Source: Candidatus Tayloriibacteriota bacterium
GTDB taxonomy: Bacteria; Patescibacteriota; Minisyncoccia; Phycocordibacterales; UBA6065
NCBI GenBank assembly: GCA_016215405.1
Contig: JACRJQ010000008.1
Coordinates: forward strand, 124,898-188,897
DNA length: 64,000 nucleotides
Direction of reading: 5' to 3'
Of this stretch, positions 2,479-60,538 are shown one piece after another. The notes under the pieces were generated by a model. It was not told where the DNA came from. It saw only the letters and a program-made list of their open reading frames with translations, and made no database searches. Within the stretch, counting starts at the first letter, position 1; every line of letters starts with the position of its first letter. Both the position numbers and the translations under genes were made by a program.

Positions 2479-4161
2479 ATGGCCATGACAGTATCTTTCG
2501 ACGAGGACAGGCAGGATAAAAAGCTCGAGGAGTGGAAGAGACGCGAAGAGGAGGACGTCGCCCAGATCCTCGCCTCCCGATACGGGCTCGAATACGCGGA
2601 CCTCGGTCCGGTGCCTATCAATATGGACGCCCTCAGGCTCCTTACCGTCGACGAGGCGAAGGAGGCGCGGCTCGCTCCTTTCTCTCTCGTGGGAAAGCGG
2701 GTAAAGATCGCCGTGATCTCTCCGGCGAACGAAAAGACCGTCCTCGCCCTCGACAAGATAAAGGCCAAGGGATACGAGGTGACCCTCGCCGTAGTCTCTC
2801 CCCTCTCTTTGGAAAAGGCATGGTCGCGCTACGCCGACCTCTCGTTCTCGACCGAGACCAAGGCCGGCGCGCTCGATATATCGAGCGAGGATATAAAGAA
2901 CTTCATCGGCCGGATAAAGACCATCGACGACGTGCGCGAGCAGATAAACGAGATACTCAAGCTCAAGAAAGGCTTCCGCATCTCGAAGATACTCGAGATC
3001 GTGCTCTCCGGCGCGCTCGCGACCAAAGCGTCCGACATCCATATCGAGCCGGAAGAGGTCTATGTGCGGCTGCGCTACCGCCTCGACGGCGTGCTCACCG
3101 ACATCCTGACGTTCGACCTCGAGACGTTCGGGCTCCTCCTCTCGCGCCTCAAGCTCCTCTCGGGCCTTAAGCTCAATATCAAATCCGAGGCTCAAGACGG
3201 CCGTTTTTCGGTCAAGATAGGCGAAGACGACATCGAGATCCGCACGTCTGTCCTCCCCGGCGCCTACAACGAGTCAGTGGTCCTCAGGCTCCTCAACCCG
3301 AAATCGATCCAAGTGCCCCTCGAGTCTTTGGGCATCCCGAAGAAGCTCCTCTCCGTCATCATGAAGGAGATCGCGAAGCCCAACGGCATGATCCTCACGA
3401 CGGGACCGACGGGATCGGGAAAGACGACAACCCTCTATGCGTTCCTCCGAAAGATCCACACGCCCGACGTGAAGATCATCACGATCGAAGACCCTATCGA
3501 ATACCATCTCCCGGGCATCGTGCAGACCCAGGTGAATTCGGACAAAGGCTACACCTTCGACCTCGGCCTCCGCTCCGCCCTGCGCCAAGACCCTGACGTG
3601 ATCATGGTGGGCGAGATCCGCGATCCCGAGACCGCGCAGACCGCAGTGAACTCGGCCCTCACGGGGCACCTCGTCTTCTCGACCCTCCACACGAATTCGG
3701 CGGCAGGCTCCTTTCCCCGCCTCATCGACCTCGGAGTCAACCCGCGCACGATCTCGTCGGCTATAAACCTGGCTCTGGCGCAGCGCCTCGTCCGAACGCT
3801 CTGTAGCGCCTGCAAAAAGGAAGAGAAGCTCGAAGGCGCCGACAAGGCGACGGTCGAAAGGGTCCTCGCGACCATCGTCGACAGGTCGGAGATACCGGCA
3901 AAAGCTGATTCTCATTTTCGACCGGTAGGGTGCCCCCAGTGTAACGGCTCCGGATACAAGGGCCGCATCGGCCTCTACGAGGGAATCCTCCTCACCGAAG
4001 AGATCAACAAGGCGATCGAATTCTCGACGTCGGCAGCGGAGGTCGAGAAAGTCGCGGCCGCGCAAGGCATCCTCACGATGCTCCAAGACGGGGTCATAAA
4101 ATCCATCACTGGCGTGACGTCTCTCGAGGAGCTGCAGAGAGTTATAAACATAGAACAATAG
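2479..4161 (+). CDS. pilB: type II/IV secretion-family assembly ATPase (GspE/PilB)
   Basis: 560 aa; Walker A TGPTGSGKTTTL, Asp/His boxes (GEIRDPETA, LVFSTLHTNSAAG), tetra-Cys CSAC...CPQC, GspE-N-like N-terminus. Confidence 0.85.
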   Translation: MAMTVSFDEDRQDKKLEEWKRREEEDVAQILASRYGLEYADLGPVPINMDALRLLTVDEAKEARLAPFSLVGKRVKIAVISPANEKTVLALDKIKAKGYEVTLAVVSPLSLEKAWSRYADLSFSTETKAGALDISSEDIKNFIGRIKTIDDVREQINEILKLKKGFRISKILEIVLSGALATKASDIHIEPEEVYVRLRYRLDGVLTDILTFDLETFGLLLSRLKLLSGLKLNIKSEAQDGRFSVKIGEDDIEIRTSVLPGAYNESVVLRLLNPKSIQVPLESLGIPKKLLSVIMKEIAKPNGMILTTGPTGSGKTTTLYAFLRKIHTPDVKIITIEDPIEYHLPGIVQTQVNSDKGYTFDLGLRSALRQDPDVIMVGEIRDPETAQTAVNSALTGHLVFSTLHTNSAAGSFPRLIDLGVNPRTISSAINLALAQRLVRTLCSACKKEEKLEGADKATVERVLATIVDRSEIPAKADSHFRPVGCPQCNGSGYKGRIGLYEGILLTEEINKAIEFSTSAAEVEKVAAAQGILTMLQDGVIKSITGVTSLEELQRVINIEQ

Positions 4162-4683: not shown

Positions 4684-4706
4684 CCCGCCCCTGCGGGCGG
4701 ATCGTT
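4684..4706. terminator. GC hairpin (CCGCCC-CTGC-GGGCGG) with a T-tract on the minus strand; intrinsic terminator, more convincing for a leftward transcript
   Basis: aaaaacccgcccctgcgggcgg; minus strand reads ...GGGCGGGTTTTTCTTTT. Confidence 0.45.
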
Positions 4707-4716
4707 CCAGAACATA

Positions 4717-4857
4717 AATCTCTAAGCAATACATAATGGTGTGCACCAAATGTTAAGCAGAGTTCTTAGGATGGCACCAGTAGGAAGACCGGAGTCTAAC
4801 CAGAACGTCCCGAGAATATCAACTAGTAAACCGTAAAGGTTTAATTGCTTAGAGATT
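4717..4857. repeat. AT-rich island bounded by a 14-bp perfect inverted repeat (AATCTCTAAGCAAT / ATTGCTTAGAGATT); candidate structured ncRNA or MITE-like element
   Basis: Inverted repeat at 4717-4730 and 4844-4857 encloses ~113 bp of low-GC sequence in a high-GC genome. Sits between an intrinsic terminator and ruvB. Confidence 0.4.
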
Positions 4858-4916
4858 CATGGCCTGGAATCCCTTGTTTCAATCTTTCATAACTAGCTTA
4901 GCATACTCGATTCAAA

Positions 4917-5966
4917 ATGTCAAGTACCCGTAACACCCCCTCTTCCGGCGGCAAAGATACGGCCTCGAACAAGGCTGGTTTGGGAGGCGACGAGCTTTTC
5001 CTCGATACGACCCTCCGACCGTCGTCATGGGACGAATATGTCGGCCAAAAAACCATTAAAGAGAACCTGCGGGTCCTTTTGCGCGCCGCGGCCGAGCGAA
5101 AGCACCCTCCGGAGCACATACTCTTCTACGGCCCCCCGGGCCTCGGCAAGACCACCCTCGCCCACCTCATCGCCAAAGAGACCGCGTCGCAGCTCAAGGC
5201 GACCTCGGGCCCCGCGATAGAGAAGGTAGGAGACCTCGCGTCGATACTCACCAACCTCTCTCCGGGCGACATGCTCTTCATCGACGAGATCCACCGCCTC
5301 AACAAGGCGATCGAAGAGGTCCTCTATCCGGCGATGGAGTCTGGCTCGCTCGACATCATCATAGGCAAAGGGCCGTCCGCGCGCACGATCCAGCTCGAGC
5401 TCCCTCCGTTCACTCTCATAGCCGCCACGACGAGGATCGCCCTCCTCTCCTCTCCTTTGCGATCGAGGTTCTCCGGCGGCACGTTCCGGCTCGAATTCTA
5501 TACCGACGCTGAGATACAAAGGATAATCCATCGCTCGGCCAAGCTTTTGGGCCTTGAGATCGACGAGAAGTCGTCCGAAAAGATAGCTAAACGAAGCCGT
5601 TTTACGCCGCGAACCGCCAACTTCCTCCTCAAAAGGGTCCGCGACCTCGCTCAGGTCGAAAAGGCGCCGGTCTCCGTCGAGATCGTAGACAGGGCCCTCG
5701 CCATGCTCGGTATCGACGAGCTCGGCCTTTTGCAGAGCGACCGCGACCTTCTCTCGACCCTTATCGACAAATTCGGAGGCGGCCCCGTAGGCCTTAACAC
5801 CCTCGCTGCATCGCTTGCTGAAGAAGAGGCGACGATCGAAGAGGTCCACGAACCCTATCTCCTCCAGCTTGGCCTCATCGAGAGGACCCCGCGAGGAAGG
5901 AAGGTCACCGAGAAGGCGTACGGGCACATGAAGGTCGAGCCTTCCAAAAGAGGAAAGCTCTTGTAG
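4917..5966 (+). CDS. ruvB: Holliday junction branch-migration helicase RuvB
   Basis: 349 aa; LRP..WDEYVGQ, Walker A GPPGLGKTTLA, Walker B LFIDEIHRL. Confidence 0.9.
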   Translation: MSSTRNTPSSGGKDTASNKAGLGGDELFLDTTLRPSSWDEYVGQKTIKENLRVLLRAAAERKHPPEHILFYGPPGLGKTTLAHLIAKETASQLKATSGPAIEKVGDLASILTNLSPGDMLFIDEIHRLNKAIEEVLYPAMESGSLDIIIGKGPSARTIQLELPPFTLIAATTRIALLSSPLRSRFSGGTFRLEFYTDAEIQRIIHRSAKLLGLEIDEKSSEKIAKRSRFTPRTANFLLKRVRDLAQVEKAPVSVEIVDRALAMLGIDELGLLQSDRDLLSTLIDKFGGGPVGLNTLAASLAEEEATIEEVHEPYLLQLGLIERTPRGRKVTEKAYGHMKVEPSKRGKLL

Positions 5967-5995: not shown

Positions 5996-6523
5996 ATGGC
6001 AGGACATAACAAATGGAAGCAGATAAAGGACAAGAAGGCGAAGACCGACGGGGCGAAGTCGAAGCTCTATTCTAAATATTCGAAGCTTATCTCGGCAGAA
6101 GCGCAAAAGGTTAAAGGCGACAAGAGCGCCCCTTCCCTTCGAGCCCTCATCGAACGCGCGAAAACTGAAAACGTGACGAACGACGTCATCGACCGCGCCA
6201 TAAAGAAGGCCTCCGAGCCTGGATCCGCCCTCGAAGCGATAGTCTACGAGGCTTACGGCCCAGGAGGATGCGCCATGATGATAGAAGCGCTCACCACCAA
6301 CAAGAACAAGGCCGCTCAGGAAGTGAAGCATATCCTTTCGGATAATGGCTTCTCCCTCGCCACTCCCGGAAGCGCCTCGTGGGCGTTTAAGCGCGAAGGC
6401 ACGACATGGATCCCGACCATGACGGTCGCCCTCGAAGACGCGGACCTCGGCATCCTCGAAAAGCTCGTCGACGACTTGGAGAACAACGACGAGGTGCAAG
6501 ACGTCTTCACGAACGTGGAGTAA
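5996..6523 (+). CDS. yebC: YebC/PmpR-family probable transcriptional regulator (short form)
   Basis: Starts MAGHNKWKQIKDKKAK (YebC hallmark), ends ...VQDVFTNVE; 175 aa. Confidence 0.75.
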   Translation: MAGHNKWKQIKDKKAKTDGAKSKLYSKYSKLISAEAQKVKGDKSAPSLRALIERAKTENVTNDVIDRAIKKASEPGSALEAIVYEAYGPGGCAMMIEALTTNKNKAAQEVKHILSDNGFSLATPGSASWAFKREGTTWIPTMTVALEDADLGILEKLVDDLENNDEVQDVFTNVE

Positions 6524-6589
6524 ATAAAAGGCTGTTCTCTGATCTACTGGACCGGGCTCGAACTTTTCTTTTTGGCCTCTCTCGTTTCG

Positions 6590-6670
6590 TCGCTGCGGGG
6601 CGCAAGGCGTCCCTCGGCGGAATACCGCGCTCGGGCATGTCCTCGCTCCGAAGCCGAGAGGGGCGGGATT
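6590..6670 (-). repeat. copy of the terminator-linked repeat element (inverted orientation)
   Basis: Matches the reverse complement of the 51.2-kb copy (GCGCAAGGCGTCCCTCGGCGG...CTCGGGCATGTCCTCGCTCCGAAG). Confidence 0.5.
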
Positions 6671-6692
6671 GTTTACGAGAAGAGGGATGCTA

Positions 6693-6725
6693 GCCGCGCC
6701 GCAAGGCGCGGTTTTCCCTTTCTTA
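6693..6725 (+). terminator. intrinsic terminator after yebC, at the centre of the repeat-element pair
   Basis: GCCGCGCC-GCAA-GGCGCGG followed by TTTTCCCTTTCTT. Confidence 0.6.
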
Positions 6726-6835
6726 CCCTCCCGCCGAGTCCGCGTTCTTCTTTGCGAGGACTTACTCCGAAGGAGGCGCTTGCGTCTCGCAGCAAAGAAA
6801 ACGCGGACCGGCTTAAAAGAAATCTCTTCTGGAGA
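6713..6835 (+). repeat. copy of the terminator-linked repeat element (direct orientation)
   Basis: ~75% identical over ~140 nt to 51157-51300 (CCCTCC-GCCG-TCCGCG-TCTTC...CGAGGAC...CGCTTGCG-TC-CGCAG...GCGGA-CGGCT-AAAA...CTCTTC). Confidence 0.55.
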
Positions 6836-6856
6836 GAGAAATGGTAAAATCAATCC

Positions 6857-7333
6857 ATGCGAATCCTCGCCATCGATCCCGGATACGAACGCCTCGGCGT
6901 CGCCGTTCTCGAAAAGAACCCCCGCGAGAAGGAGACCCTCCTTTATTCTGACTGCTTCAAAACGTCGACAAAGCTTCCCCACGCCGAGAGGCTCGCCCTC
7001 ATCGGCGGCGAAGTCGCGCGCGTCATCGAGGAGTTCGAGCCGAAGGCGCTCTCGATAGAGACCTTGTTCTTCAGCACGAACACGAAGACCGCCATAGCCG
7101 TCGCGGAAGCGCGCGGGACGATACTCTACGAGGCGGCAAGACACGGATTAAAAGCCTATGAATATGGGCCTGGTCAGATAAAAGTAGCTGTCACCGGCTA
7201 CGGTAAAAGCGATAAAGAGCACATGATCGCGATGGTCCCTAAGCTTATAAAGATAGAAAAGGAGATAGGGCACGACGACGAGTACGATGCCATAGCCGTC
7301 GGCCTGACCTGCTTCGCAGTAGAGAGATTTTAA
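6857..7333 (+). CDS. ruvC: crossover junction endodeoxyribonuclease RuvC
   Basis: MRILAIDPGYERLGVAVLE...; 158 aa RNase H-fold resolvase. Confidence 0.85.
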   Translation: MRILAIDPGYERLGVAVLEKNPREKETLLYSDCFKTSTKLPHAERLALIGGEVARVIEEFEPKALSIETLFFSTNTKTAIAVAEARGTILYEAARHGLKAYEYGPGQIKVAVTGYGKSDKEHMIAMVPKLIKIEKEIGHDDEYDAIAVGLTCFAVERF

Positions 7334-7481
7334 AGGACTCGCCCTCTCGGTCTATGTCTCGCCAAGAAGCCCGCGCGACTCGTCTCGCTCTCGGCGGCTG
7401 CTTTAGACGGTTTTCCACACCGCCTGCTACTTGCAAAGAAAATCCTATTTGCTACAAATAGGGGCGTTACATTAAATTTGC

Positions 7482-7715
7482 ATGCCCCGAAAGAAGATCC
7501 AAAAAGAAGAGGTCCTCAAGGTAGAGGATGATCGTGAGAAGAAGGACGACGACAAGGAAGAGGAAGAAGACGATGATCCGAGCCCGAAGAAAGTGGCGTC
7601 GGACGACGATGAAGCCCTTCCCGATCCTGACGAAGACGATCCTCTCGACGAGGACGATGAGGACGAGGACGATCCTCTCGTCGATTTTATGACGGAAGAG
7701 GAGGAGAGCTGGTAG
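7482..7715 (+). CDS. small highly acidic protein (Asp/Glu-rich), unknown function
   Basis: 77 aa, more than 50% D/E. Followed directly by an intrinsic terminator. Confidence 0.45.
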   Translation: MPRKKIQKEEVLKVEDDREKKDDDKEEEEDDDPSPKKVASDDDEALPDPDEDDPLDEDDEDEDDPLVDFMTEEEESW

Positions 7716-9043: not shown

Positions 9044-11605
9044 TTGAGTCTACTTCATATGAGAAAAAGCACCTTCCGGAGGGTTTTCGCGCATTTTAAG
9101 GCGCACACCCTGAAAGATATCGCCATCATCTTCGCGTCTTTCGCCGCCATCGCTTTGGGGGCAGCGGTACTCTGGGTATCTTCGTTCCGGCTTCCCGACC
9201 TCTCTTCCTTCGAGCAGCGAAAGGTGAGCGAGTCGACGAAGATATATGACAGGACAGGAAAGGTCCTCCTCTACGACCTTAATGAAGGGGTAAAAAGGAC
9301 CGTGGTCTCCTCGTCGGAGATCTCCGACCTCATAAAAAGGGCGACGGTCGCCATAGAGGACGCCGATTTCTACGACCATAACGGCATAAAGATATCCTCG
9401 TTCATCCGCGCGGTCCTCGCGAACCTCAAGACCGGCGAATTCAGCCAGGGCGGATCGACCATAACCCAACAGGTGGTCAAGAACACCCTCCTCACCCAAG
9501 AGAAGAAGATATCGAGGAAGCTCAAGGAGTGGGTCCTTGCCATCAAGCTCGATAAAGCCCTCACCAAAGACGAGATCCTCACGAGCTATCTCAACGAGAA
9601 TCCCTACGGCGGCGCCGTCTACGGCGTACAAGAAGCTTCGAGGAGATTTTTCGGGAAATCGGCGAAAGATGTCACTTTGGCCGAAGCGGCGTACCTCGCA
9701 GCCATCCCCCAGGCGACTACCTACTACTCGCCTTACGGCAAAAACGTGGAGAAGCTCGAGGATAGGAAGAACCTCGTCCTCCGCAAGATGGTCGAGGTCG
9801 GATACATAAGCGAGGAAGAGTACGAGGCCGCAAGAAAGGAGAAAGTGGCCTTCCAGGCCCAAGAAGAGTCGGGGATAAAAGCTCCTCATTTCGTATTCTT
9901 CGTCAAAGACTATCTCGAAGGGATCCTCGGGGAAGGCTTCCTCGAAGAGGCCGGCTACAAGGTCGTGACGACTCTCGATATCGACCTTCAGGAGAAGGCG
10001 CAGGACCTCGTAAAGGCGACCGCGCGCTCCAACCAGGAGAATTTCGATGCGGAGAACGCGGCGCTCGTAGCGCTCGACCCAAAGACCGGCGATATCCTCT
10101 CCATGGTCGGATCGCGCGACTATTTCGACAAGGAGATAGACGGGAAATTCAACGTGGCGACATCTCCCAACCGCCAGCCCGGCTCTACCATGAAGCCGAT
10201 AATATACGCGAGAGCTTTCGAAGAGGGGTACACGCCCGAAACGATCCTCTTCGACCTCGAAACCGAGTTCAGCTCGGAGTGCACGACGGAATTCAAGCCG
10301 AAGAACGAGGGGGCGGACCCGAAGACCTGCTACCACCCGAAGAACTACGACGATAGATTCCGCGGGCCTATAAGCCTCCGGGAGGCCCTGGCTCAATCTA
10401 TAAACGTCCCGTCTGTAAAGCTCCTCTATCTCGCCGGCGTGCGAGACTCTCTCTCCCTCGCCAAAGACATGGGCATAACGACCCTTACAAACGCCAACCA
10501 GTATGGGCTCACCCTCGTTCTTGGAGGCGGCGAGACGTCCCTCCTCGAGATGACCTCGGCGTACGGCACCTTCGCAGCCGAAGGGGTCCACGTCCCTTAT
10601 AAGCCGGTCATCGCTCTCTATGATGCCAAGGGCAAGGAGATAAGGCTCCCTTCGGAGAAGCCTCGCCAAGCCCTCTCCGCCGACTCTGCTCGCGCGATCT
10701 CCGACATCCTCTCCGATAACGCCGCGCGCACGCCGGCATATGGGGCGAATTCCGTCCTCTATTTTCCAGATCGCGACGTAGCGGTAAAGACGGGTACCAC
10801 GAACGATTCTAGAGACGCTTGGACGATCGGATACTCCCCCAACATCGTGGTCGGCGTCTGGGCGGGAAACAATGACAACGCCCCGATGGTAAAGAAGGTG
10901 GCCGGACAGATCGTGGCCCCTATGTGGAGCTCGTTCATGAAACAGGCGCTCCAGAGCGTTCCAGATGAGAGGTTCTCGCCTCCTTCGCCGAAGGATTCGG
11001 CCAAGCTTAAGCCGGTGATGAAAGGTATCTGGCAAGGAGGCACGACCTATACGATCGACACCATCTCGGGGAAGCTCGCAACAGAGTTCACTCCGGCAGA
11101 GACGAAAAAGGAAGTCGCGATCCAGTCCGTCCACTCCATATTGCATTGGCTCGATAAAGACGATCCCCTAGGCCCCGCCCCCCTCTATCCTCAGCGCGAC
11201 TCTCAATACGAGAAATGGGAGTTCGTAGTGAGGAAGTGGGCGCTCGAGAACGGCTACGCCGACCAGACCACCTCCTCGATGCCTACACAGTACGACGACG
11301 TCCATACGGCAGGGAACATGTTCACGATAAGCATCCAGAACATAGAGCAGTCGAAGCCTTATGGGCTAAACGACACCGTCTCCGTCTACGTGAACTCTAC
11401 AGGAAAGTACCAAATGGCTAAGGCGAGCCTCTACGTGAACGGCTCTTTCGTCGAAACGACGGAGAGGCAGCCGTTCATCTTTAGGTTCTCTCCTTCGTCT
11501 ATAGCGAACGTTAAGGACAAGAATATGGTGCGGATCGTCGGGCAAGACTCGGTATATAACCGCGCAGAGGCATCGGCGGAATTCAGCGTGGCTCTCGAGG
11601 GCTAA
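9044..11605 (+). CDS. class A penicillin-binding protein (transglycosylase + transpeptidase)
   Basis: GT51 motifs (EDADFYDHNGI, GGSTITQQVVKN); transpeptidase motifs STMKPI, SxN and KTGT; N-terminal TM anchor; 853 aa. Confidence 0.9.
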   Translation: MSLLHMRKSTFRRVFAHFKAHTLKDIAIIFASFAAIALGAAVLWVSSFRLPDLSSFEQRKVSESTKIYDRTGKVLLYDLNEGVKRTVVSSSEISDLIKRATVAIEDADFYDHNGIKISSFIRAVLANLKTGEFSQGGSTITQQVVKNTLLTQEKKISRKLKEWVLAIKLDKALTKDEILTSYLNENPYGGAVYGVQEASRRFFGKSAKDVTLAEAAYLAAIPQATTYYSPYGKNVEKLEDRKNLVLRKMVEVGYISEEEYEAARKEKVAFQAQEESGIKAPHFVFFVKDYLEGILGEGFLEEAGYKVVTTLDIDLQEKAQDLVKATARSNQENFDAENAALVALDPKTGDILSMVGSRDYFDKEIDGKFNVATSPNRQPGSTMKPIIYARAFEEGYTPETILFDLETEFSSECTTEFKPKNEGADPKTCYHPKNYDDRFRGPISLREALAQSINVPSVKLLYLAGVRDSLSLAKDMGITTLTNANQYGLTLVLGGGETSLLEMTSAYGTFAAEGVHVPYKPVIALYDAKGKEIRLPSEKPRQALSADSARAISDILSDNAARTPAYGANSVLYFPDRDVAVKTGTTNDSRDAWTIGYSPNIVVGVWAGNNDNAPMVKKVAGQIVAPMWSSFMKQALQSVPDERFSPPSPKDSAKLKPVMKGIWQGGTTYTIDTISGKLATEFTPAETKKEVAIQSVHSILHWLDKDDPLGPAPLYPQRDSQYEKWEFVVRKWALENGYADQTTSSMPTQYDDVHTAGNMFTISIQNIEQSKPYGLNDTVSVYVNSTGKYQMAKASLYVNGSFVETTERQPFIFRFSPSSIANVKDKNMVRIVGQDSVYNRAEASAEFSVALEG

Positions 11606-11898: not shown

Positions 11899-12999
11899 CT
11901 ATCGATTCATCGGCATCACCAGATAGGTGAACGATTTGTCCGAGACGCCTCGCATCACGAGAGGCTTATTCGACCCGCTGATGGAGAGAGATATCGAGTC
12001 GGAGTCGATCGATTGGAAGCAGTCCGAGATATATTTATGGTTGAAGTTTATCTCCACATCCTCGCCCGATACAGAAGAGTCGATAGCGTTGGTATACTCG
12101 CCCACATCGCTATTCTTTGTCGCGATGACGAAGTTCTTCTTCGAAGGCAGAGCCTTCACGTTGACCTGATTGAACTTATCGGAAAAGACGTGAGAGGTCT
12201 TGAGAGAATCGACGAGGTCCTGCTTGAGGACGACCACCTCCGTGACGAACGCCTTCGGGATGATCTGCCTGTAGTCGGGGAAGGTTGCGTCTATGACTCG
12301 CGACATGAGGTAGATATCCTTTCCTTCGAAGGCGATCTGATTCCTATCGAAATAGACCTTTATGTCCTCGGTGAGGCCGTCGAGGGTTCTTATGACGTCG
12401 CTTACGTTCTTTGCTGGGATAATGACCGAAGGAAAATCTACGGAATCTTTTATCTTGACCCTCTTCTCGGCGAGCCTAAACGAGTCCGTCGATACGAAAA
12501 CCAAGTCAGACCCCTCCTTGTAGACGTATACAGAGGAGAGCTCGGGCTTTACCGTCGATACAGAAGCGCTGTATACGACCGATTTGAACCCTTTGACGAG
12601 AAGGCGAGGATTGATCTCGATCGTCCTCTGGCTATCTATCTTCGGTATCGCTGGAAAATCATCGGGAGAATATGTCTTGATGAGAGTGGTGTTCGCCGAG
12701 GTAGAGACGAGGACGTTGCCCTCTTTCGATTCGAGGATTATATTCTTCTCTTTCGGAAGGCCGGAAAGAAGGGATGTGAGGACTGCGCCGTGAATCGCGA
12801 CCTCGCCCTCTGTATCCACCTTCGCCGGTATCTTTATCTCTATGCCGCAGTCGAGGTTCGTCGCCCGTACCGTAAGCGAATTCTTCGATGCGCGCAGATC
12901 GACGCACGAGAGTATCGGTAATGAGAGGTTTTTAGAGGTCAGCCTGTCTGCTTTCGTTATAGCGTCTATAAGCTTGTCTTTGATGCATTCGATTTTCAT
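11899..12999 (-). CDS. dnaN: DNA polymerase III beta sliding clamp
   Basis: 366 aa; MKIECIKDKLIDAI...LSLPILSCV... three-domain clamp; adjacent to dnaA. Confidence 0.9.
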   Translation of the reverse strand: MKIECIKDKLIDAITKADRLTSKNLSLPILSCVDLRASKNSLTVRATNLDCGIEIKIPAKVDTEGEVAIHGAVLTSLLSGLPKEKNIILESKEGNVLVSTSANTTLIKTYSPDDFPAIPKIDSQRTIEINPRLLVKGFKSVVYSASVSTVKPELSSVYVYKEGSDLVFVSTDSFRLAEKRVKIKDSVDFPSVIIPAKNVSDVIRTLDGLTEDIKVYFDRNQIAFEGKDIYLMSRVIDATFPDYRQIIPKAFVTEVVVLKQDLVDSLKTSHVFSDKFNQVNVKALPSKKNFVIATKNSDVGEYTNAIDSSVSGEDVEINFNHKYISDCFQSIDSDSISLSISGSNKPLVMRGVSDKSFTYLVMPMNR

Positions 13000-13243
13000 A
13001 GTCCCAGTATATCCTCTTAATTATCTATATATAAGACTATTACTATTAATATACCTGTGGATATGTGTATAAGTCGCGCTTGAGACTATAAACAAGGTTA
13101 TTTCGGATATTTCTCTTGCCGCTACGTGGGGATATCCGGTTTTGTTTCAGAACAACTTTTCGCTCTATGATCGAAAGCTCGAAGTTATCCAACAGCATCC
13201 CTCTCTTATCCACTCGAAATCTACACTTTTCCCCAGGCTTTTC
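13000..13243. other. putative oriC (dnaA-dnaN intergenic region): AT-rich unwinding element plus DnaA boxes
   Basis: Low-GC tract ttaattatctatatataagactattactattaatatacc. DnaA-box-like 9-mers TGTGGATAT (13056-13064), TTATCCAAC (13185-13193), TTATCCACT (13206-13214). Confidence 0.5.
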
Positions 13244-14587
13244 CTACGAGATGAGAGATCGTATGTGATTTACCTCTTGGAGAAGGATCTGGTTTGATTT
13301 TATATCCTCCTTTATCTTCTCGCATGAGTGGATCACGGTCGTATGGTCGCGGCCGCCGAGCTTCTCCCCTATCGAAGGGTATGAGATGTTCATGTCCTCG
13401 CGCAGAAGGTACATGATGACCTGGCGCGGCTTAACCACCTCCTTCTTTCGCGTTTTCTCGTAGATATGGGTCTCTTCGATGTTGTAGAAATCCGACACAA
13501 TCTTCACCACATCCTTGATCGATATCGATTTCTTGGGCTTCGAATTGTTCTTTATGAGGTTCTTTATCTCAAGGATATTGAGCTCTCGGCCTCGAAGCTG
13601 CGTCTGCATGGCGATCGAGTTGACGACGCCCTCGAGCTCGCGGATATTCCCGTCTATCGAAGATGCTAGGAATTCTAGATGCTCTTCTGGCAAAGGGATG
13701 CTCTGGCGCGAGAGCTTCGTCCTCAGTATGGATATCCTCGATTCGTAGTCGGGAGCCGATACGTCGACGATCATCCCCGACCCGAAGCGGGATTTGAGCC
13801 TGTCTTCGAGGTCCGGCATGTGGTTAGGGTGCTGATCGGACGAGCAGATGAGCTGTTTGTTCGACTCCTTGAGGGTGTTGAAGAGATGGAAGAACTCCTC
13901 CTGGGATTTTTCCTTCGAAGAGAAGAACTGTACGTCGTCCATGATGAGAACGTCGTATTTTCGGTAGCGCTCCTTGAATTGGTTGGCCTTTCCGAGCTGG
14001 ATCGAGTTCATGTAGTCGACGGCGAAGCGCTCGGAAGTCACGTAGAACACCCTTTTTGCCGGGTGATTCTGCTTTATGTGGTTTCCTACGGCTTGCATGA
14101 GATGGGTCTTGCCTCGGCCGGTGCCCCCATAGATGTAGAGCGGGTTGTACGCGATGCCGGGATTTTTCATGACGGCCTGAGCAGCCGCGTGGGCGAGCTC
14201 GTTGAAGGGCCCTACGACGAACGTCTCAAAGGTGTATTTAGGGTTGAGGTTGTCGTCCTTGCTTATGTAGAAGTCCTGAAGAGGCAATTCATAGGCGGGA
14301 AGGGCCCTCTTTGGCTCTTCGGAGACCTCCCTTCTCTCTTGGGACTTGGATATCACGTATTCGAGCGACCTCACGTCGTTGCCGAAATCCCTAAGGTATT
14401 TAAGGATGGTCTTGTGGAACTTCGAGGAGAGCCATTCTTTGGCGAATATAGAGGGGACGGCAAGATATACGACCCCATCGTCGAGCCTGTGGATATACGT
14501 ATCCCTAAACCACATATTGAAGTTAGCCTTCGAGACTTGAAGCTCGATTACCCCCAGAACGTTCTCCCAAAGCTTTTTATTATCCAT
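13244..14587 (-). CDS. dnaA: chromosomal replication initiator DnaA
   Basis: 447 aa; AAA+ Walker [11 protein letters not shown] and a C-terminal DNA-binding domain. Confidence 0.95.
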
Positions 14588-14644
14588 GATGCAAGGTTTA
14601 GCGAGCGACCTAAAGTATAGTCGGCCTCAGGGAATTGTAGTACT

Positions 14645-14653
14645 TGTGGATAG
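14645..14653. promoter_or_regulatory. DnaA-box-like site (TGTGGATAG) in the dnaA upstream region
   Basis: One mismatch from TGTGGATAA. A second site, TGTGAACAA, is nearby. Confidence 0.35.
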
Positions 14654-14742
14654 GATGTAAATGTGTTAATAATATGTGAACAAACTGTTGAGAGCGGAGT
14701 TTCCCAAATCTCCGGTTTCGGTTTACACTTTATTCCCTACTT

Positions 14743-14880
14743 ATGGCAATCGTATACAAGACAAAGAATAGGAAACGAGCTCGCGCTCACGGCTTCCTCG
14801 CGAGGAAGGCCACAAAGAACGGCAGGAACGTCATGAAGCGCCGAAGGCAGAAGGGCCGAAAGCGCGTAGTGAAGGTATAA
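14743..14880 (+). CDS. rpmH: 50S ribosomal protein L34
   Basis: 45 aa: [45 protein letters not shown]. Missing from the ORF track because it is under 60 aa. Confidence 0.8.
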
Positions 14881-14891
14881 TCCCATACCCC

Positions 14892-15215
14892 ATGCTCCCG
14901 AAGGCGAAACGCCTCACGACGGAGGATGTCGGTTCGCTCGATACTGGAAGAAGCGTCTTCGGGACGCTTCTTTCTTTGAGGCTGAGGCCGTCTAAGGCCC
15001 TTAAATGCTCGGTTTCGGTATCGAAGAAGGTGGCGCCGAAGGCGGTAGACAGGAATCGCGCTCGACGAAGGGCGTACGCGGCGGCAGAGAAGGCCCTCAG
15101 CGCCGTGAAGTCGCCAGCTTTCATGCTCATCATGCTCAAAAAGGAAGCGCTTGCCGCGTCCGTCGAAGATATCGCCGCTGAGATCTCTTCCTTGCTCGAA
15201 AGGGCCGGTTTGTAG
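14892..15215 (+). CDS. rnpA: RNase P protein component
   Basis: 107 aa; LPKAKRLT... and the basic motif KKVAPKAVDRNRARR; sits in the canonical rpmH-rnpA-yidC order. Confidence 0.8.
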   Translation: MLPKAKRLTTEDVGSLDTGRSVFGTLLSLRLRPSKALKCSVSVSKKVAPKAVDRNRARRRAYAAAEKALSAVKSPAFMLIMLKKEALAASVEDIAAEISSLLERAGL

Positions 15216-15245
15216 GCTTTCTCACCCTCGCTTATACTTATCCCT

Positions 15246-16007
15246 ATGCGTTACATCTACAATAGCTTCATTTACGAGCCCCTCTATAACGGCCTTATAA
15301 TCCTCGTCGACCTCCTCAAAAGCCTCTCGTGGGTCGATGCCGGCATCATAATCATCCTTTTCACGATCATCGTTAAGCTCGTCCTCTTCCCTCTTTCGAA
15401 GAAGGCCGTCCGTACCCAGGCTGTAATGAAGCTCGTCGAGCCGGAGCTCGCCGCTCTTAAAGAGAAGTATAAGGGGGACAAGCAGGCCCAGGCGGTCCAT
15501 ATCATGAATTTCTACAAGGAGAAGGGCATAAACCCCTTCTCGAGCATCTTCCTCCTCTTTATCCAGCTCCCGATAATATTCGCGCTCTATAAGGTCTTCT
15601 ACGCCACAGGCTTCACTTCGATCCATACAGAGCTCCTCTATTCGTTCGTCTCCGTTCCTCCCCTCCCGTCGCCTCTATTCCTCGGTATTCTCGATGTCAC
15701 GGAGAAGAGCGCCGTCCTCGCCGTCCTCGCGGCGGTCTCTCAGTATTTTCAGATAAAGCTCTCCGTTCCGGTATTGCCAAAGAAAACAGGAGGAGAAAGG
15801 AACTTCCAAGAGGATTTCGCGCGCAACATGCAGGTCCAGATGAAATACGTTCTGCCTGTGATGATCCTTTTCATCTCCTATCACGTTGCCGGCGCGCTCG
15901 CCCTCTACTGGATAACCTCGAACCTATTCACCATTGGCCAAGAGCTGGTGATCCGCAGGCAGCTCGAGCGAGAAAGGGTCGCGGCGAAGGCAGTCGTTAA
16001 GGCCTAA
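15246..16007 (+). CDS. yidC: membrane protein insertase YidC (short form)
   Basis: 253 aa polytopic protein; conserved YidC core ...FPLSKKAVRTQAVMKLVEPELAALKEKY... and ...FISYHVAGALALYWITSNLF. Confidence 0.85.
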   Translation: MRYIYNSFIYEPLYNGLIILVDLLKSLSWVDAGIIIILFTIIVKLVLFPLSKKAVRTQAVMKLVEPELAALKEKYKGDKQAQAVHIMNFYKEKGINPFSSIFLLFIQLPIIFALYKVFYATGFTSIHTELLYSFVSVPPLPSPLFLGILDVTEKSAVLAVLAAVSQYFQIKLSVPVLPKKTGGERNFQEDFARNMQVQMKYVLPVMILFISYHVAGALALYWITSNLFTIGQELVIRRQLERERVAAKAVVKA

Positions 16008-45248: not shown

Positions 45249-45319
45249 GCGGGTATCGTTTAGTGGTAGGACACGTCCTTGCCAAGGATGAGGTGAGAGT
45301 TCGATTCTCTCTACCCGCA
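45249..45319 (+). tRNA. tRNA-Gly (anticodon GCC)
   Basis: Acceptor GCGGGTA/TACCCGC, anticodon stem CGTCC/GGATG with loop TTGCCAA, T-arm GAGAG-TTCGATT-CTCTC. Confidence 0.85.
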
Positions 45320-45361
45320 CAAATGAAAAGGCGCCTCAGGGCGCCTTTTCATTTGTGCGGG
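45314..45361 (+). terminator. 22-bp perfect hairpin that uses the tRNA-Gly 3' acceptor strand (CCCGCACAAATGAAAAGGCGCC-TCAG-GGCGCCTTTTCATTTGTGCGGG)
   Basis: The stem includes the last 6 nt of the tRNA; likely terminator or processing structure. Confidence 0.5.
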
Positions 45362-45810
45362 TAAGCCCTGCCTTTGACAGGACGTGGAAGAATCGAAGCC
45401 ACTCTCCTATGTTTCTGAGGATGTATCCATCCCGAGAAACAGGAGACGGGTACTGCCCACGTGAGGAACGATTCTCCCCATCTCAACAAAATCTTAAATG
45501 TCCTTTACGCTTTGAAACAATTTTCCCCTCCCTCTCGTATAAAGCATTTTCTAAAAAACGACTATATTTAAGGGTATTTTGCAAAACTGTGGATAACTCT
45601 GTGGATTGTGTTTAAAAGACATGGTCTACGACCGAGTTGAGGGCCCTGTCTTTTGTCCTTGGTAGCGCTTCATAGAGCCTTATATTGACAGATTCTCGAT
45701 ATTAATCCAGAAGATAGGTGCTATGTTACATATGTAACATAATTTACTGTTTCATGTGAAATTTTAGTCGTTTTTATATTTATTTTAGGGTTATCAGGCA
45801 TACTTTCAGT

Positions 45811-47198: not shown

Positions 47199-47269
47199 GC
47201 GGGCGTAATTTAGTGGTAGAATGACTGCCTTCCAAGCAGTAAGTCCGGGTTCGATTCCCGGCGCCCGCA
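47199..47269 (+). tRNA. tRNA-Gly (anticodon UCC)
   Basis: Acceptor GCGGGCG/CGCCCGC, anticodon stem ACTGC/GCAGT with loop CTTCCAA, T-arm CCGGG-TTCGATT-CCCGG. Confidence 0.85.
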
Positions 47270-47311
47270 CAAATGAAAAATCCCTTCAGGGGGATTTTTC
47301 ATTTGTGCGGG
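47264..47311 (+). terminator. 21-bp hairpin using the tRNA-Gly 3' strand (CCCGCACAAATGAAAAATCCC-TTCAG-GGGATTTTTCATTTGTGCGGG)
   Basis: Same architecture as at 45314-45361, with compensatory changes in the distal stem. Confidence 0.5.
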
Positions 47312-47460
47312 CGAGAACGTCTGGTAGACGTTCGTCCAGTGATCGAAAAGGTTCTGCTATGTTTTCGAGGATTTCCATCCGAAAAAACGGGAGATCTGTA
47401 CTGCGGCTGTAAGCCGAGATATTCCGGCGCCCGAGACTAGAAGTGATTATAGATAAAGTG

Positions 47461-50378: not shown

Positions 50379-50443
50379 GATATCAAAACGAGGAAGAAGC
50401 GCAATACATTCCCTTTTTCGTGAAACTGGGTAGACTGTTACAC

Positions 50444-51142
50444 ATGCGACTTCACCGCTTCTACGTCACATCAAATATTTCTAAAGAAAAGATAAATTCT
50501 TTCTCAAATCCTGGTTTGGTCCATCAGTTGAGGCGCGTTTTCAGGTTGCACGCTGGGGACAAGGCTATATTCTTCGACGGAACCGGCGACGACCATGTCT
50601 CTGAGATCGTTTCGATGACGGATGAGAAACTCGAGTTTCGCGTGCTCGAAACATCGCCCGTGAAACCTCATTCGTCCCTGAGGCTCTCGCTCGCCGTCTC
50701 TCTTATAAAGAAGGATCATTTCGAATGGGTGATCGAGAAGGGCACCGAGATAGGAGTCTCCGAGTTCATTCCCGTCATGTCCGAGCGCAGCGAGAAGAAG
50801 GGTTTCAATATGGAGCGAGCGCGAAAGATCATGGTCGAAGCGGTCGAGCAGTCGGGGCGGACATTCGTCCCAGAGATCCGGGAGCCTATGACCCTCGAAG
50901 AGTTTCTCGCGGGAGAGAAAAGAGAGGTCGTCGCGTTTCACACGGAAGGAGCGGACCTTGCAGACGAAGACATTGTAAAGACGGGCGAACTCGTCGCATG
51001 TGTCGGTCCTGAGGGAGGGTGGTCGGAGAGGGAGGTGGAGATGTTTCGCGAGAAGGGGGCAGCGATCGTGAAACTGAATTCTCCGGTTCTCCGCGCCGAG
51101 ACTGCGGCGATCGCGGTCGCGACGCTTCTCCTTGTAAAATAG
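50444..51142 (+). CDS. rsmE: 16S rRNA (uracil1498-N3)-methyltransferase RsmE
   Basis: MRLHRFYV... PUA-like N-terminus and SPOUT C-terminus (...[15 protein letters not shown]...). Confidence 0.8.
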
Positions 51143-51154
51143 TTTCCAAAAAAG

Positions 51155-51190
51155 AAAGCCGCGCACTTCGTGCGCGGCTTTCTTTTTCTC
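51155..51190 (+). terminator. intrinsic terminator after rsmE; 5' end of the repeat element copy
   Basis: AGCCGCGCAC-TTCG-GTGCGCGGCTTTCTTTTTCT. Confidence 0.6.
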
Positions 51191-51300
51191 TTCAACCCTC
51201 CGCCGGATCCGCGCTCTTCCGAACGAGGACATGCCCGAGGAGTAGCCTTCGAGGGACGCTTGCGCTCCGCAGTGAGGAAAGTGCGGATCGGCTAAAAAAC
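51182..51300 (+). repeat. copy of the terminator-linked repeat element
   Basis: See alignment with 6693-6835 (~75% identity over ~140 nt including the terminator). Confidence 0.55.
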
Positions 51301-51320: not shown

Positions 51321-51350
51321 GCAAAAAATCCCCAATCGGGGATTTTTTAT
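51321..51350. terminator. bidirectional intrinsic terminator after tig
   Basis: GCAAAAAATCCCC-AATC-GGGGATTTTTTAT. Confidence 0.6.
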
Positions 51351-51356
51351 CGAGTC

Positions 51357-52403
51357 TTATTTCTGCTTCTCGAGGAATTCGAACACCGCCTGATTGAGGA
51401 GGATCTGCGAGAAATAATTTCTCGCGTTCTCCTCGGGGATATCCTTGTGATGCTCGAGGGCATGCTTCACCTCTGTCTCTACCCTCGCCTTGTCCGCCGT
51501 TATCTTCTCGACGCTCGCGACGTGGTCGAGGATGAGATCGAGCTTCACGCGCTTTATCGCATCCGGCCTCCACTCCTTCTTGAGGTCGTCCTCGGTCTTC
51601 TTGAGAGCCTTGAGGTAGTCGTCGAACTTCATACCCATTCTCTCGATGTCGTGAGACATCTGTCCCTTCATGCGCGAGAGCTCGGATGCGACCAGCACCT
51701 CGGGGATCGCCACTTCGAGCTCCTTCGAGAGGGCGTCGACAAGCTCTATGCGCCTCTTCTCGACGAGCCTCTGTTTCTTCTCGGCCTCGAGGTTCTTTCG
51801 AAGCTGGGATTTGAAATCCGCGACGTCTTTGAATTCGCCCCAAGTCTTTACGAGCTCATCCGTAAGCTCGATAGGCGCTTTTTCTTTCTCGTCCGTGCCC
51901 TTCGACTTTCCGATGCGTGCGTAGTTCTTCTTTATGTCCTCGACGGCTTTCTCGACGTCTGCGTCAGTGACCTCTGCAGGCTCTGTTTTTTTCGCATTCT
52001 CTCTTTTCGCGATCGCCTTATAGTCGAATTTCGCTATCTTCGGGACGACCGCGGTTCTTACCGTGAATTCGAGGGGGTTGCCCGACGCGATCTTGGTGAT
52101 GGAGACCTGAGGCTGGCCGATAGCGTCGATCTTCTCCGCTTCGAGTATGTGACCGTATGCGTGCGAGATCGCGTGCTCGGCAGCCTCGGCGAGAAGAGCC
52201 GCTTCTCCTATCTTCTCTCTGACGACCTTCTCTGGCGCCATGCCTTTTCTGAAGCCAGGGAGAGATACCTCCTTCTTGAGGTCGGAGAGCGTGTCTTTGA
52301 CCGCGGCTTCGAATTCCTCGGCCGGGATAGAGCTTTTTATCTCGACCTCGCAGGTGTCCGCGAGCTCCTTTACCGTCGCTTTGTATGAATGATGTGATGC
52401 CAT
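51357..52403 (-). CDS. tig: trigger factor (N-terminal ribosome-binding + C-terminal chaperone domains; PPIase domain apparently absent)
   Basis: GFRKGMAPEKVV signature. ~348 aa from the internal Met (52403). The N-domain runs straight into the C-domain-like region. Confidence 0.8.
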   Translation of the reverse strand: MASHHSYKATVKELADTCEVEIKSSIPAEEFEAAVKDTLSDLKKEVSLPGFRKGMAPEKVVREKIGEAALLAEAAEHAISHAYGHILEAEKIDAIGQPQVSITKIASGNPLEFTVRTAVVPKIAKFDYKAIAKRENAKKTEPAEVTDADVEKAVEDIKKNYARIGKSKGTDEKEKAPIELTDELVKTWGEFKDVADFKSQLRKNLEAEKKQRLVEKRRIELVDALSKELEVAIPEVLVASELSRMKGQMSHDIERMGMKFDDYLKALKKTEDDLKKEWRPDAIKRVKLDLILDHVASVEKITADKARVETEVKHALEHHKDIPEENARNYFSQILLNQAVFEFLEKQK

Positions 52404-52456
52404 GTTTCTATATATATGAGAATTGCAGTCTATCCGCAAAGGACCGATTTGTCTAC

Positions 52457-59245: not shown

Positions 59246-60538
59246 TTGATGCGAATAAAGCTAGGAAACGCCGTTTTCGATAGAAATCCTGCGGCTTTAG
59301 CTTTCTTTGTTTGGTTCACGCTCGCTTTCGTCCTCGTATTCGCTTTTGGCCATGCCGTGCATGCCCAAGGAGTGTGGACGCAGACGAGCGGTCCCACGAA
59401 TATCGCGGGCCCGACCGGTTGCCATTATGAAGAAGAGTGCACCGACCAATCTGGCTGGTCGAATGCTTTTAGGGCAGGACAGTCTTGCTCGAGCGTAGGA
59501 TCTTCTGTCACATGCTATTTTAACGACAGCGCTTCGGGTTGCGGTACGGATAAGGTGCAAGGTTTCTTTAGGACGAGGTATCAGTATTCCTGCCAGGCTA
59601 TCCAGTCTTGTCCCTCCCCGATCGATCTCTGCGGGTCGCCCTCAGGCGGACAGCCGTCCGTCCCTTCGAGCTTCAGTTCGGCGTGCTCAGCGAACGGCGG
59701 ATCGACGAGCGTCACGTTCGACGGGACGATCGGGTGCAATCCGTCTCAGTATCCGCCAGAAGGAGGCAGGGATTGGACCGCGACCTGCAGCGCGTGCGCG
59801 CCCGCCTATTCCCAAGGCTATTATTACGGGCAGGGATATTATGAAGGCTACTACTACGGCCAGGGATACTATTATTCCCAGGGATATTACCAAGGCTACT
59901 ACTACGGACAAGGCTACTATTACAGCCAAGGAACCTATCAGGGAGCTTATTATGCGCAGGGATATTACCAAGGCTACTACTACGGACAAGGCTACTATTA
60001 CAGCCAAGGGACGTATCAGGGATACTACTATACTCAGGGCTACTACTACGGCCAGGGATACTATTATTCTCAAGGATATTATCAGGGCTATTATTACGGG
60101 CAGGGGTATTACTACGGCCAGGGATACTATTATTCTCAATCTTCGTATCTTCCTCCTCCCGGCTTCACTCTCGGCGGGACAGAGGCTATAAAGATACGAT
60201 TCCTCGAGGCGGGCGCGTCAGATTCGGAGCCAAAGGCGATCCCGGTGAACGCGGTGAGCGGATTTACGGGCAACGTCTCGGTGTCGATAACATCGAGCCC
60301 GGCTTTGCCGAACGGCGCGGCTATCAGATACTCGTGGAACGGAGGCGAGTGGTCATCGAATCCGAGCCCGATACTCATACCTTACGAAGGGTCCGCCACG
60401 CTAAGAGTCCAGGTATCGAAGAAGGTCTCTGGCACCTATGTGATCACCCTTACGGGCACCTCTCCTGGATATTCGAGCGTGACCAAAGACCTCATACTCA
60501 CTCCGACGACGCTCACCCCCGTATTTCAGGAGACCTAA
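59246..60538 (+). CDS. secreted Cys-rich protein with long (Q/S)GYYYG Tyr-Gly-Gln-rich tandem repeats and the conserved C-terminal module
   Basis: Signal/TM ALAFFVWFTLAFVLVFAFGHAVHA; Cys-rich domain; ~110 aa of QGYYYGQGYYYSQGYY repeats; C-terminus ...VSKKVSGTYVITLTGTSPG...LTPVFQET. Confidence 0.7.
   Translation: MMRIKLGNAVFDRNPAALAFFVWFTLAFVLVFAFGHAVHAQGVWTQTSGPTNIAGPTGCHYEEECTDQSGWSNAFRAGQSCSSVGSSVTCYFNDSASGCGTDKVQGFFRTRYQYSCQAIQSCPSPIDLCGSPSGGQPSVPSSFSSACSANGGSTSVTFDGTIGCNPSQYPPEGGRDWTATCSACAPAYSQGYYYGQGYYEGYYYGQGYYYSQGYYQGYYYGQGYYYSQGTYQGAYYAQGYYQGYYYGQGYYYSQGTYQGYYYTQGYYYGQGYYYSQGYYQGYYYGQGYYYGQGYYYSQSSYLPPPGFTLGGTEAIKIRFLEAGASDSEPKAIPVNAVSGFTGNVSVSITSSPALPNGAAIRYSWNGGEWSSNPSPILIPYEGSATLRVQVSKKVSGTYVITLTGTSPGYSSVTKDLILTPTTLTPVFQET
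59806..60140 (+). repeat. in-frame tandem repeat (78-nt unit, 24-nt sub-period) encoding the YYYGQG-type low-complexity region
   Basis: A near-identical 54-nt block cagggatattaccaaggctactactacggacaaggctactattacagccaagg starts at 59879 and again at 59957. Confidence 0.7.

Follow-up and report, generated by a model that had tools for sequence, protein, structure and literature searches.

In a 64,000-nt stretch of the genome of a Candidatus Tayloriibacteriota bacterium (contig JACRJQ010000008.1; hereafter the window), ruvB (4917-5966), a short yebC (5996-6523) and ruvC (6857-7333) follow one another, and the 333-nt spacer between yebC and ruvC consists of two inverted copies of a long hairpin element, named C and A, around a single GC-rich hairpin at 6692-6713. 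A second site, between rsmE (50420-51142, plus strand) and the convergent trigger-factor gene (tig, 51357-52439, minus strand; identity from synteny), holds the third full hairpin element, copy B. The strand of a copy is defined here by the motif CGAGGAC, by which A and B lie on the plus strand and C, like a partial copy D, on the minus strand. Copy C occupies 6550-6690, with its tip at 6593-6645, the stem arms at about 6574-6592 and about 6646-6664 and an A-rich 3' tail towards 6550. Copy A (6715-6835) has a shortened apical hairpin, a conserved tip at 6755-6792, a pyrimidine-rich 5' flank and an A-rich 3' tail; the tip of copy B (51183-51300) lies at 51224-51272.

The three full copies are real. 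A covariance model, R1, run over the whole 64 kb with filters off, gave exactly three matches of 41-49 bits, at 6577-6662 in C (40.8 bits), 6738-6808 in A (48.8 bits) and 51207-51288 in B (47.2 bits), the next best (17.6 bits) being an ordinary terminator. As R1 was trained partly on the window copies, leave-one-out nhmmer profiles were added as a check, and every omitted copy was regained with E-values from 5e-12 to 7e-20 (A 4.8e-12, C 1.6e-12, B 7.3e-20). Copy A folds with -65.8 kcal/mol (z = -4.9). A first-pass annotation, made from the sequence alone, had already placed three copies here and described the yebC-ruvC spacer as inverted copies around one GC hairpin, and both observations hold. 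Its figure of about 75% identity between A and B has to be corrected: the similarity is there, but over the ranges originally compared it amounts to 82% of aligned pairs and 63% of columns, and in the multiple alignment the copies share 57-66%. The fourth inverted copy which it saw at 7340-7400 stands in part. This sequence, D (7336-7400), comprises a cut-down 5' arm with the 5' half of the tip and abuts the ruvC stop codon; it resembles copy A in local alignment (40/48 identities, equalled by 0/300 shuffles), but is matched neither by R1 nor by nhmmer, folds no better than shuffles (z = -0.25) and does not align significantly to B or C. We read it as a truncated relic of the 5' half of a copy.

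Each full copy in the window has a terminator as its neighbour. The hairpin between C and A (AGCCGCGCC-GCAA-GGCGCGGTT; nine pairs, seven of them G-C, in the terminator scan) is bidirectional and probably is the native terminator of yebC, lying outside the repeat; terminator-like hairpins follow yebC also in L135 and L136, where no elements are present (L-numbers label the compared loci in other genomes or contigs). Copy B is sandwiched by the native, bidirectional rsmE terminator (51149-51187; hairpin 51157-51179 with A and T tracts, an 18-bp perfect inverted repeat) and a second bidirectional terminator (AAAAATCCCCAATCGGGGATTTTTT, 51324-51350, recognised through repeat family D9), which closes the convergent trigger-factor gene. 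The proposal that a terminator forms the 5' end of the unit was followed up and rejected: L138 carries the orthologous hairpin after rsmE without any element. The terminators of the window genome share AAAGCCGCGC-like stems. The element hairpins themselves do not behave as intrinsic terminators in the window, where they end in A-rich tails (GGCUUAAAAG, GGCUAAAAAA, GGCCAAAAAG) and only the separate hairpins 6692-6713, 51157-51179 and 51324-51350 qualify; Kaiserbacteria-type copies have no U-tract, Saccharibacteria copies do.

The element is a hairpin of 110-170 nt with a copy-specific stem and a conserved structured tip, 5'-C-GA-GGAC ... small hairpin ... CUUGCG-YYY-CGCAG-3'. The stem, P1, of about 20 bp in the window and 25-45 bp in relatives, differs in sequence from copy to copy with its pairing kept, and closes directly on CGAGGAC on the 5' side and on CUUGCG-YYY-CGCAG on the 3' side. 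The flanks, pyrimidine-rich on the 5' side and ending in the A-rich tail on the 3' side, may extend it. Inside the tip are a short CCC/GGG helix and a small hairpin of variable sequence, which in the window copies is flanked by a symmetric GA/GA loop; copies B and C and the relative L128 have a second tandem G.A in P1, 1-3 bp from the junction.

Scanning one genome per species with the pattern CGAGGAC N15-40 CTTGCGYYYCGCAG revealed at least 116 loci. Among the matches listed, 29 loci with 30 copies show the architecture in full, their long arms directly adjoining the motif, and all of these lie in metagenome-assembled genomes (MAGs) of the candidate phyla radiation (CPR; Patescibacteria): 21 are labelled Saccharibacteria or Saccharimonadales, two Kaiserbacteria, two Paceibacterota and four are MAGs designated 'bacterium', several MAGs giving two or three loci each. 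The other 87 loci among these matches are the bare motif in GC-rich coding DNA of unrelated phyla; R1 scores bare motif matches at 22-29 bits, as against 57-97 bits for copies of the Kaiserbacteria/Paceibacterota type. A stricter pattern yielded 12 further loci in metagenome contigs, including L128, which belongs to the window's own subtype. About 40 relatives are thus known in all, in Patescibacteria MAGs or metagenome contigs and often several per genome. Three subtypes can be told apart, for which we use the working names W (the window copies and L128), K (CGAGGACCGAACCCGCAG - 5-bp hairpin - CGUGAGGGCGCUUGCGUYCCGCAG) and S (Saccharibacteria), the last being longer and having a GAGUCAU bulge, a U-tract behind the big hairpin, and additional hairpins on the downstream side. 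In L082, L027, L073 and L111, the S subtype sits within a longer conserved unit: an upstream TGTAGC box is followed by the big hairpin and the U-tract, then by a second hairpin, which is A/U-rich and covaries, and finally by a third, GC hairpin. This unit occurs up to four times in 8 kb, at times as partial tandem or inverted copies.

An independent test of the tip is provided by five copies found by the model alone (in L099, L027 and L082). CGAGGAC is kept in all five, as is G(U/C)(U/C)CC(G/A)CAG, and CUUGCG has a U inserted, is expanded to CUCGAAGAGCG or is wholly replaced. Because of this variation, the universal module is drawn as P1 - C-GA-GGAC ... GUYC-CGCA-G - P1', with CUUGCG as the usual, but not obligatory, lead into its 3' part. 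RNAalifold pairs GGAC with GUYC; this helix would contain an A.C mismatch in three of the four W copies, so that the pairing inside the tip is provisional, CGAG/CUUG and a GCG-YYY-CGC hairpin being alternatives to it. The structure covaries strongly in two subtypes. In the K/W alignment 79.4% of cells are paired compared to 56.0% after shuffling (reached in 0/500), 21 of 24 pairs change on both sides, and sliding the partners lowers pairing to 36-55%; in the S alignment the values are 89.0% and 65.1% (0/500), with two-sided changes in 34 of 47 pairs. A covariance-model search and an inspection for compensatory changes, suggested as checks from the outset, gave three matches in the window and pairing kept through two-sided changes.

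The mismatches further reveal which strand is folded. When the arms were aligned with all non-Watson-Crick pairs scored equally, purine-purine mismatches in the K subtype (A.G + G.A + A.A + G.G = 48) by far exceeded pyrimidine-pyrimidine ones (C.U + U.C + U.U + C.C = 5), and in the K and S subtypes together G.U-type pairs exceeded those of the A.C type (43 versus 22). On account of both excesses the CGAGGAC strand is the folded strand. As this strand, which carries the G.A and G.U pairs, runs away from the central hairpin in the yebC-ruvC spacer, copies A and C stand head-to-head and not convergent. The folded form may be RNA or single-stranded DNA (ssDNA). Of the apical loops in K/W copies, roughly half are GNA triloops with a C-G closing pair; AUA or AAA accounts for several others, and GNRA and UNCG loops are absent. 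GNA triloops and tandem sheared G.A pairs are classic stable motifs of DNA hairpins, and GNA/ANA triloops are atypical of RNA. The conserved U-tract right after the big hairpin on the CGAGGAC strand of S copies, on the other hand, points to RNA.

No collection searched has catalogued this family. At the gathering threshold, Rfam 15 recognises only four tRNAs in the whole window, and E-value scans of 6400-7500, of seven related loci and, taken alone, of L119, which holds a Kaiserbacteria-type copy (2940-3065, minus strand), returned spurious long-hairpin matches only (miRNA precursors, TwoAYGGAY). Viral contigs gave four chance matches, BLASTN against phages and plasmids none, and the paper library, searched by topic and by the literal core sequence, contains no description of the element and no paper joining CPR with MITE, REP or palindromic elements. 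Several likenesses that were considered (twister-sister, the 5S loop C 'CCGAAC', the Ro site of Y RNA and a canonical K-turn) are leads at most, supported neither by an Rfam model nor by the strand order of the G.A pairs. By its make-up the element is kin to the kind known as palindromic intergenic repeats, but its structured core is conserved to an unusual degree.

Both window loci are empty in relatives. The yebC-ruvC spacer measures 5 nt in L133, 45 nt in L135 and 148 nt in L136, compared to 333 nt in the window, and in L134 an unrelated gene is inserted there; the rsmE-tig spacer measures 33 nt in L139, 106 nt in L137 and 320 nt in L138 (with a small open reading frame (ORF) inside), compared to 214 nt in the window. 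R1 detected no copy in about 104 kb of close relatives covering the two loci. Decayed copies of C and A, suspected by eye in the L136 spacer, were unsupported by MAFFT and nhmmer. The gene in L134 (8810-9958, 382 aa) sits exactly where the window has its element pair and is without a Pfam match.

The position of the element differs between GC-rich and compact genomes. In the five GC-rich cases (window A, B and C, L050 and L110) it invariably lies 14-25 nt from a bidirectional terminator hairpin, and in C, L050 and L110 it follows the stop codon of the host gene in antisense, ahead of the terminator. The spacers of compact genomes, 108-141 nt long, are taken up entirely by the hairpin, with no separate terminator. 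Head-to-head doublets recur, as C(-)/A(+) in the window, 7485-7591(-)/7692-7783(+) in L082, which has four copies within 8 kb, and 3411-3501(-)/3631-3716(+) in L027. The flanking genes are unrelated housekeeping genes, among them ruvB/yebC/ruvC, rsmE/tig, an ABC-F ATPase, glycosyltransferases and AddA. A partner protein beside the Saccharibacteria copies was considered and given up, as the adjoining ORFs there are unrelated housekeeping genes too. The folded strand is on the lagging-strand template in three of the four window copies, too few to mean anything. Of the two first-pass proposals, a REP/MITE-like mobile repeat targeting terminators comes closer than convergent genes for non-coding RNAs (ncRNAs): the element is indeed dispersed, multi-copy, present or absent at orthologous spacers and near terminators in all GC-rich cases, but the terminator is native, the adjacency disappears in compact genomes, and the shared terminal repeats and target-site duplications of such elements are missing.

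The copies of the window do not overlap coding sequences, as the first-pass annotation had noted; among relatives, L118 is an exception. Here, an intact copy (27 of 31 arm pairs Watson-Crick) lies antisense within the frame of infB and makes up aa 283-323 of an uninterrupted 526-aa IF2 ORF, between the Pfam domains EF-G_D2 (198-274) and IF-2 (315-417). In L113, the IF2 linker is 16 aa shorter at the same site and retains partial nucleotide similarity, and possibly holds a decayed copy. Two more in-gene cases, in the C-terminus of a PIF1 helicase (L120, sense) and in a C-terminal extension of COX1 (L124), are ambiguous, since GC-rich DNA yields long chance ORFs. The K core can be read through in each of the three antisense frames, and has a UGA in one sense frame; a peptide search for other in-frame insertions gave no matches.

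Among known systems, the REP/BIME/REPIN sequences of proteobacteria, which are mobilised by RAYT (a Y1 HUH transposase), share much with the element: they are extragenic palindromes dispersed after genes and beside terminators, in many copies per genome and in inverted doublets, and strand-specific single-strand folding is implied. REP sequences, however, are 20-40 nt long, with a conserved 5' GTAG and a family-wide stem, whereas the CPR element has 110-170 nt, a copy-specific stem and a conserved tip; and REP families are species-specific, while the core described here spans CPR classes. GTAG is absent from the flanks of the window and Kaiserbacteria-type copies, a TGTAGC box being found upstream of Saccharibacteria copies only. 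ERIC and MITE-like repeats (Correia, RUP, SPRITE, QMITE; PMC10969869) are likewise palindromes, imperfect and some 100-200 bp long, that lie in spacers and 3' untranslated regions, with strain-variable presence and, for ERIC, conservation beyond one genus (PMC10969869). MITEs, though, have conserved terminal inverted repeats and target-site duplications, neither of which the CPR element has; its pattern of conservation is inverted, the centre being conserved and the ends free. The Rickettsia palindromic element (RPE), too, is a palindromic repeat of 100-150 bp in a host-dependent bacterium with a reduced genome and occurs in spacers as well as in frame within genes (PMC10969869), as does the CPR element in infB of L118. 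Every RPE codes for a conserved peptide, and of the 44 copies in R. conorii almost half are situated inside genomic ORFs (PMC10969869); the CPR element offers one secure in-gene case among about 45 copies, its covarying structured core has no described equivalent in RPE, and it is not known to be related to RPE in sequence. The element belongs to neither REP/REPIN nor ERIC, and probably not to RPE.

Structured RNAs and other folded elements were compared as well. Small self-cleaving ribozymes (hammerhead, twister, twister-sister, pistol, hatchet) also combine a conserved junction core, covarying stems and dispersed copies with no fixed neighbourhood, but no Rfam model of theirs matches and the closing stem of the CPR element is very long. 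6S RNA likewise is a long irregular hairpin with a conserved asymmetric internal loop; yet it is about 180 nt long and present in one or two syntenic copies, whereas the CPR element is multi-copy and polymorphic, with three copies in 64 kb and none at the syntenic loci of relatives, and the Rfam 6S model does not match it. Integron attC sites have conserved R''/R' boxes at the hairpin base and a variable tip, the reverse of the arrangement seen here, and a reverse-transcriptase gene, expected next to a retron msr/msd, does not adjoin the element.

We give an even chance to the explanation that the element is a non-autonomous, dispersed, selfish structured repeat of the REP/ERIC/RPE-like sort, the conserved tip of which is read as a folded single strand by some factor. 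Its behaviour resembles that of selfish palindromic repeats, RPE above all, because it is dispersed (several loci per MAG), polymorphic (both window loci empty in relatives), found in doublets, lodged in dispensable DNA and, once, inserted in frame. The conserved module would then act as a cis-acting handle, folded on the CGAGGAC strand as RNA or ssDNA; a trans-acting factor would recognise it and copy or move the element, and the long stem would owe its perfection to selection for pairing, to intrastrand templated correction or to the two together. The window copies are probably of no use to yebC, ruvC or rsmE.

Several observations weigh against a selfish repeat. No transposase, reverse transcriptase or other partner was found adjoining the copies examined, and a RAYT gene in particular adjoins none of them (in the 64-kb window and the 8-20-kb fragments of the others), so that mobility is deduced from distribution alone. 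Termini are not shared, the outer arm ends being unrelated between copies, and direct repeats at the hairpin feet, as would mark target-site duplications, are lacking in 23 copies; hence the element fits none of the known transposition chemistries. That CGAGGAC and CTTGCGYYYCGCAG look invariant is, moreover, partly a product of the search pattern. Function is favoured by the orthologous pair L022/L025, in which the element is better conserved than its flanks, and by the conservation of the module across CPR classes, which is unusual for junk repeats. Finally, the orientation of the copies, which speaks for a selfish repeat, was counted on crude ORF gene calls: of the copies flanked by co-directional genes about 15 lie antisense and 5 sense, and at four further non-redundant loci with a single callable neighbour all four are antisense. 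Functional readings stay alive because of this core spanning CPR classes, the element outlasting its flanks in L022/L025 and the orientation bias. The readings considered here, as selfish repeat, ncRNA, ssDNA or ribozyme-type element, overlap.

Tentatively, and with rather little confidence, the copies may be seen as a true family of small ncRNA genes, transcribed from the CGAGGAC strand and kept as paralogues under host selection; it is equally tentative that the long perfect stem would serve as a processing stalk (for example, for RNase III) and the internal-loop module would bind a conserved CPR protein. The strong strand-specific covariation with G.U and tandem G.A pairs, the core kept across CPR classes, the U-tract of the Saccharibacteria copies and the better conservation of the element in L022/L025 all speak for this, and the antisense orientation would fit independent transcription units. 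The room for such genes is scarce, however: in the window the element begins just 14-24 nt after the preceding terminator on its own strand, too little for a promoter, and in compact genomes the hairpin takes up the whole spacer. The same gap, together with the head-to-head polarity of A and C, argues against the convergent ncRNA genes with a shared bidirectional terminator of the first-pass annotation. Absence at both loci in close relatives, the intact antisense copy inside infB and apical loops that are mostly GNA/ANA triloops, never GNRA or UNCG and thus atypical of RNA, also disagree with ncRNA genes.

That the element acts as ssDNA, as a Y- or T-shaped hairpin read by an HUH/Y1-type enzyme or as an msDNA-like cDNA made from host transcripts, we consider unlikely. 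It is suggested by the C(GNA)G triloops and tandem sheared G.A pairs, hallmarks of DNA hairpins, which dominate the apical hairpin and the junction, by inverted doublets resembling REPINs and by the folded strand usually being complementary to host mRNA, as a cDNA would be. Yet neither an HUH transposase nor a reverse-transcriptase gene lies beside any copy examined, the element is 3-5 times as long as a REP and, in the window and Kaiserbacteria subtypes, without the conserved GTAG, and the Saccharibacteria U-tract has no obvious role in DNA.

An activity of the RNA itself can be thought of in a broader and a narrower form. The broader one, a CPR-wide mobile structured RNA which constitutes a new class of self-cleaving or catalytic RNA or else a hairpin precursor processed to small RNAs, we regard as having a low probability; in the precursor variant, the copy-specific perfect stem would be processed and the conserved tip would be the docking site of the enzyme. 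The excess of antisense copies would in that case stem from selection against the active strand within host mRNAs, and is as expected if RNA of the CGAGGAC strand is active and harmful there, be it as ribozyme, RNase signal or termination signal. The narrower form, which we find quite doubtful, is a selfish repeat whose tip is active as RNA, either as a novel self-cleaving ribozyme or as a strong signal for RNase or termination. No more probable is the purging that it would entail of sense insertions from transcription units, where the mRNA would be cut or destabilised by them. The profile of the element, with some 55 nt of core, conserved nucleotides at the junction, stems that covary and many dispersed copies without gene association, would suit a ribozyme, as would the roughly 15:5 antisense excess between co-directional genes and the positions in the window, where the sense copies A and B lie behind terminators and C, in the 3' region of yebC, is antisense. 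Against it stand the lack of any match to a known ribozyme class in Rfam, even at E <= 10 on short stretches, the closing stem of 20-45 bp, which is not a ribozyme feature, the fact that no cleavage site can be inferred and the possible sense copy inside an ORF in L120. The last explanation, that no family exists and the similarity reduces to local terminator duplication or chance likeness of GC-rich terminators, as the first-pass annotation had allowed should no further copies be found, may practically be dismissed: although the AAAGCCGCGC-like stems common to the genome's terminators explain the apparent homology of the hairpins 5' of A and B, the element proper lies outside the terminators, about 40 loci of the same architecture with compensatory changes exist in other CPR genomes, and the leave-one-out E-values range from 1e-12 to 1e-20.

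Other hairpins and features of the region are worth recording. Upstream of ruvB, 4700-4872 holds a hairpin some 165 nt in length, with its arms at 4705-4730 and 4844-4869, far better conserved in L136, L133 and L135 than the surrounding spacer and with apparent compensatory changes; Rfam at E <= 1 gave spurious RNAI/ctRNA matches only, and this single-copy, syntenic hairpin is a candidate housekeeping ncRNA, possibly 6S-like. Downstream of ruvC, where the window has relic D, L135 carries another long perfect hairpin (10496-10590; 19-bp arms, two small apical hairpins, fold z = -6.1) that matches no Rfam family and not R1, and the spacer downstream of ruvC seems to collect hairpin elements. A small acidic ORF follows ruvC in all relatives (7482-7715 in the window), preceded at 7430-7481 and in L136, L135 and L133 by a conserved block, TTGCAAAGAAAATCCTATTTGCTACAAATAGGGGCG, which holds the hairpin CCTATTTG-CTA-CAAATAGG and is perhaps a promoter or operator. 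The tRNA-Gly genes (GCC, UCC; 45249-45363 and 47199-47313) are each followed by a perfect hairpin of 23-24 bp, the 5' arm of which starts within the 3' end of the tRNA (CCCGCACAAATGAAAA...); over 115 nt, one unit shares 73% identity with the other. The region 11899-16007 is a probable replication origin with dnaN(-), dnaA(-), rnpA(+) and yidC(+), genes named via synteny with relatives having Pfam matches; oriC would lie at about 13-15 kb, and the AT skew changes sign nearby at about 10-13 kb. Degenerate tandem repeat blocks with periods in multiples of 3, apparently inside long ORFs, occupy 59812-60130 and 61229-61605 (start-to-start spacings 18/30/48 nt and 9/36/45/63 nt).

The Patescibacteria make up a large share of bacterial diversity and have almost no described non-coding elements; for TM7x, a transcriptome preprint states that there are no currently validated small RNAs (10.1101/2022.03.25.485537). 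An element recurring across Saccharibacteria, Kaiserbacteria, Paceibacterota and Taylorbacteria offers a concrete motif for genome annotation, the more so as its hairpins take up entire spacers and may be mistaken for ORFs. It also serves as a marker for insertion polymorphism at the strain level, and the infB copy of L118 documents a repeat insertion into an essential gene of a minimal genome. The element further gives a starting point in the search for the protein or enzyme by which its tip is recognised, and should this tip turn out to be catalytic or a processing signal, it would represent a new class of RNA from a little-explored lineage.

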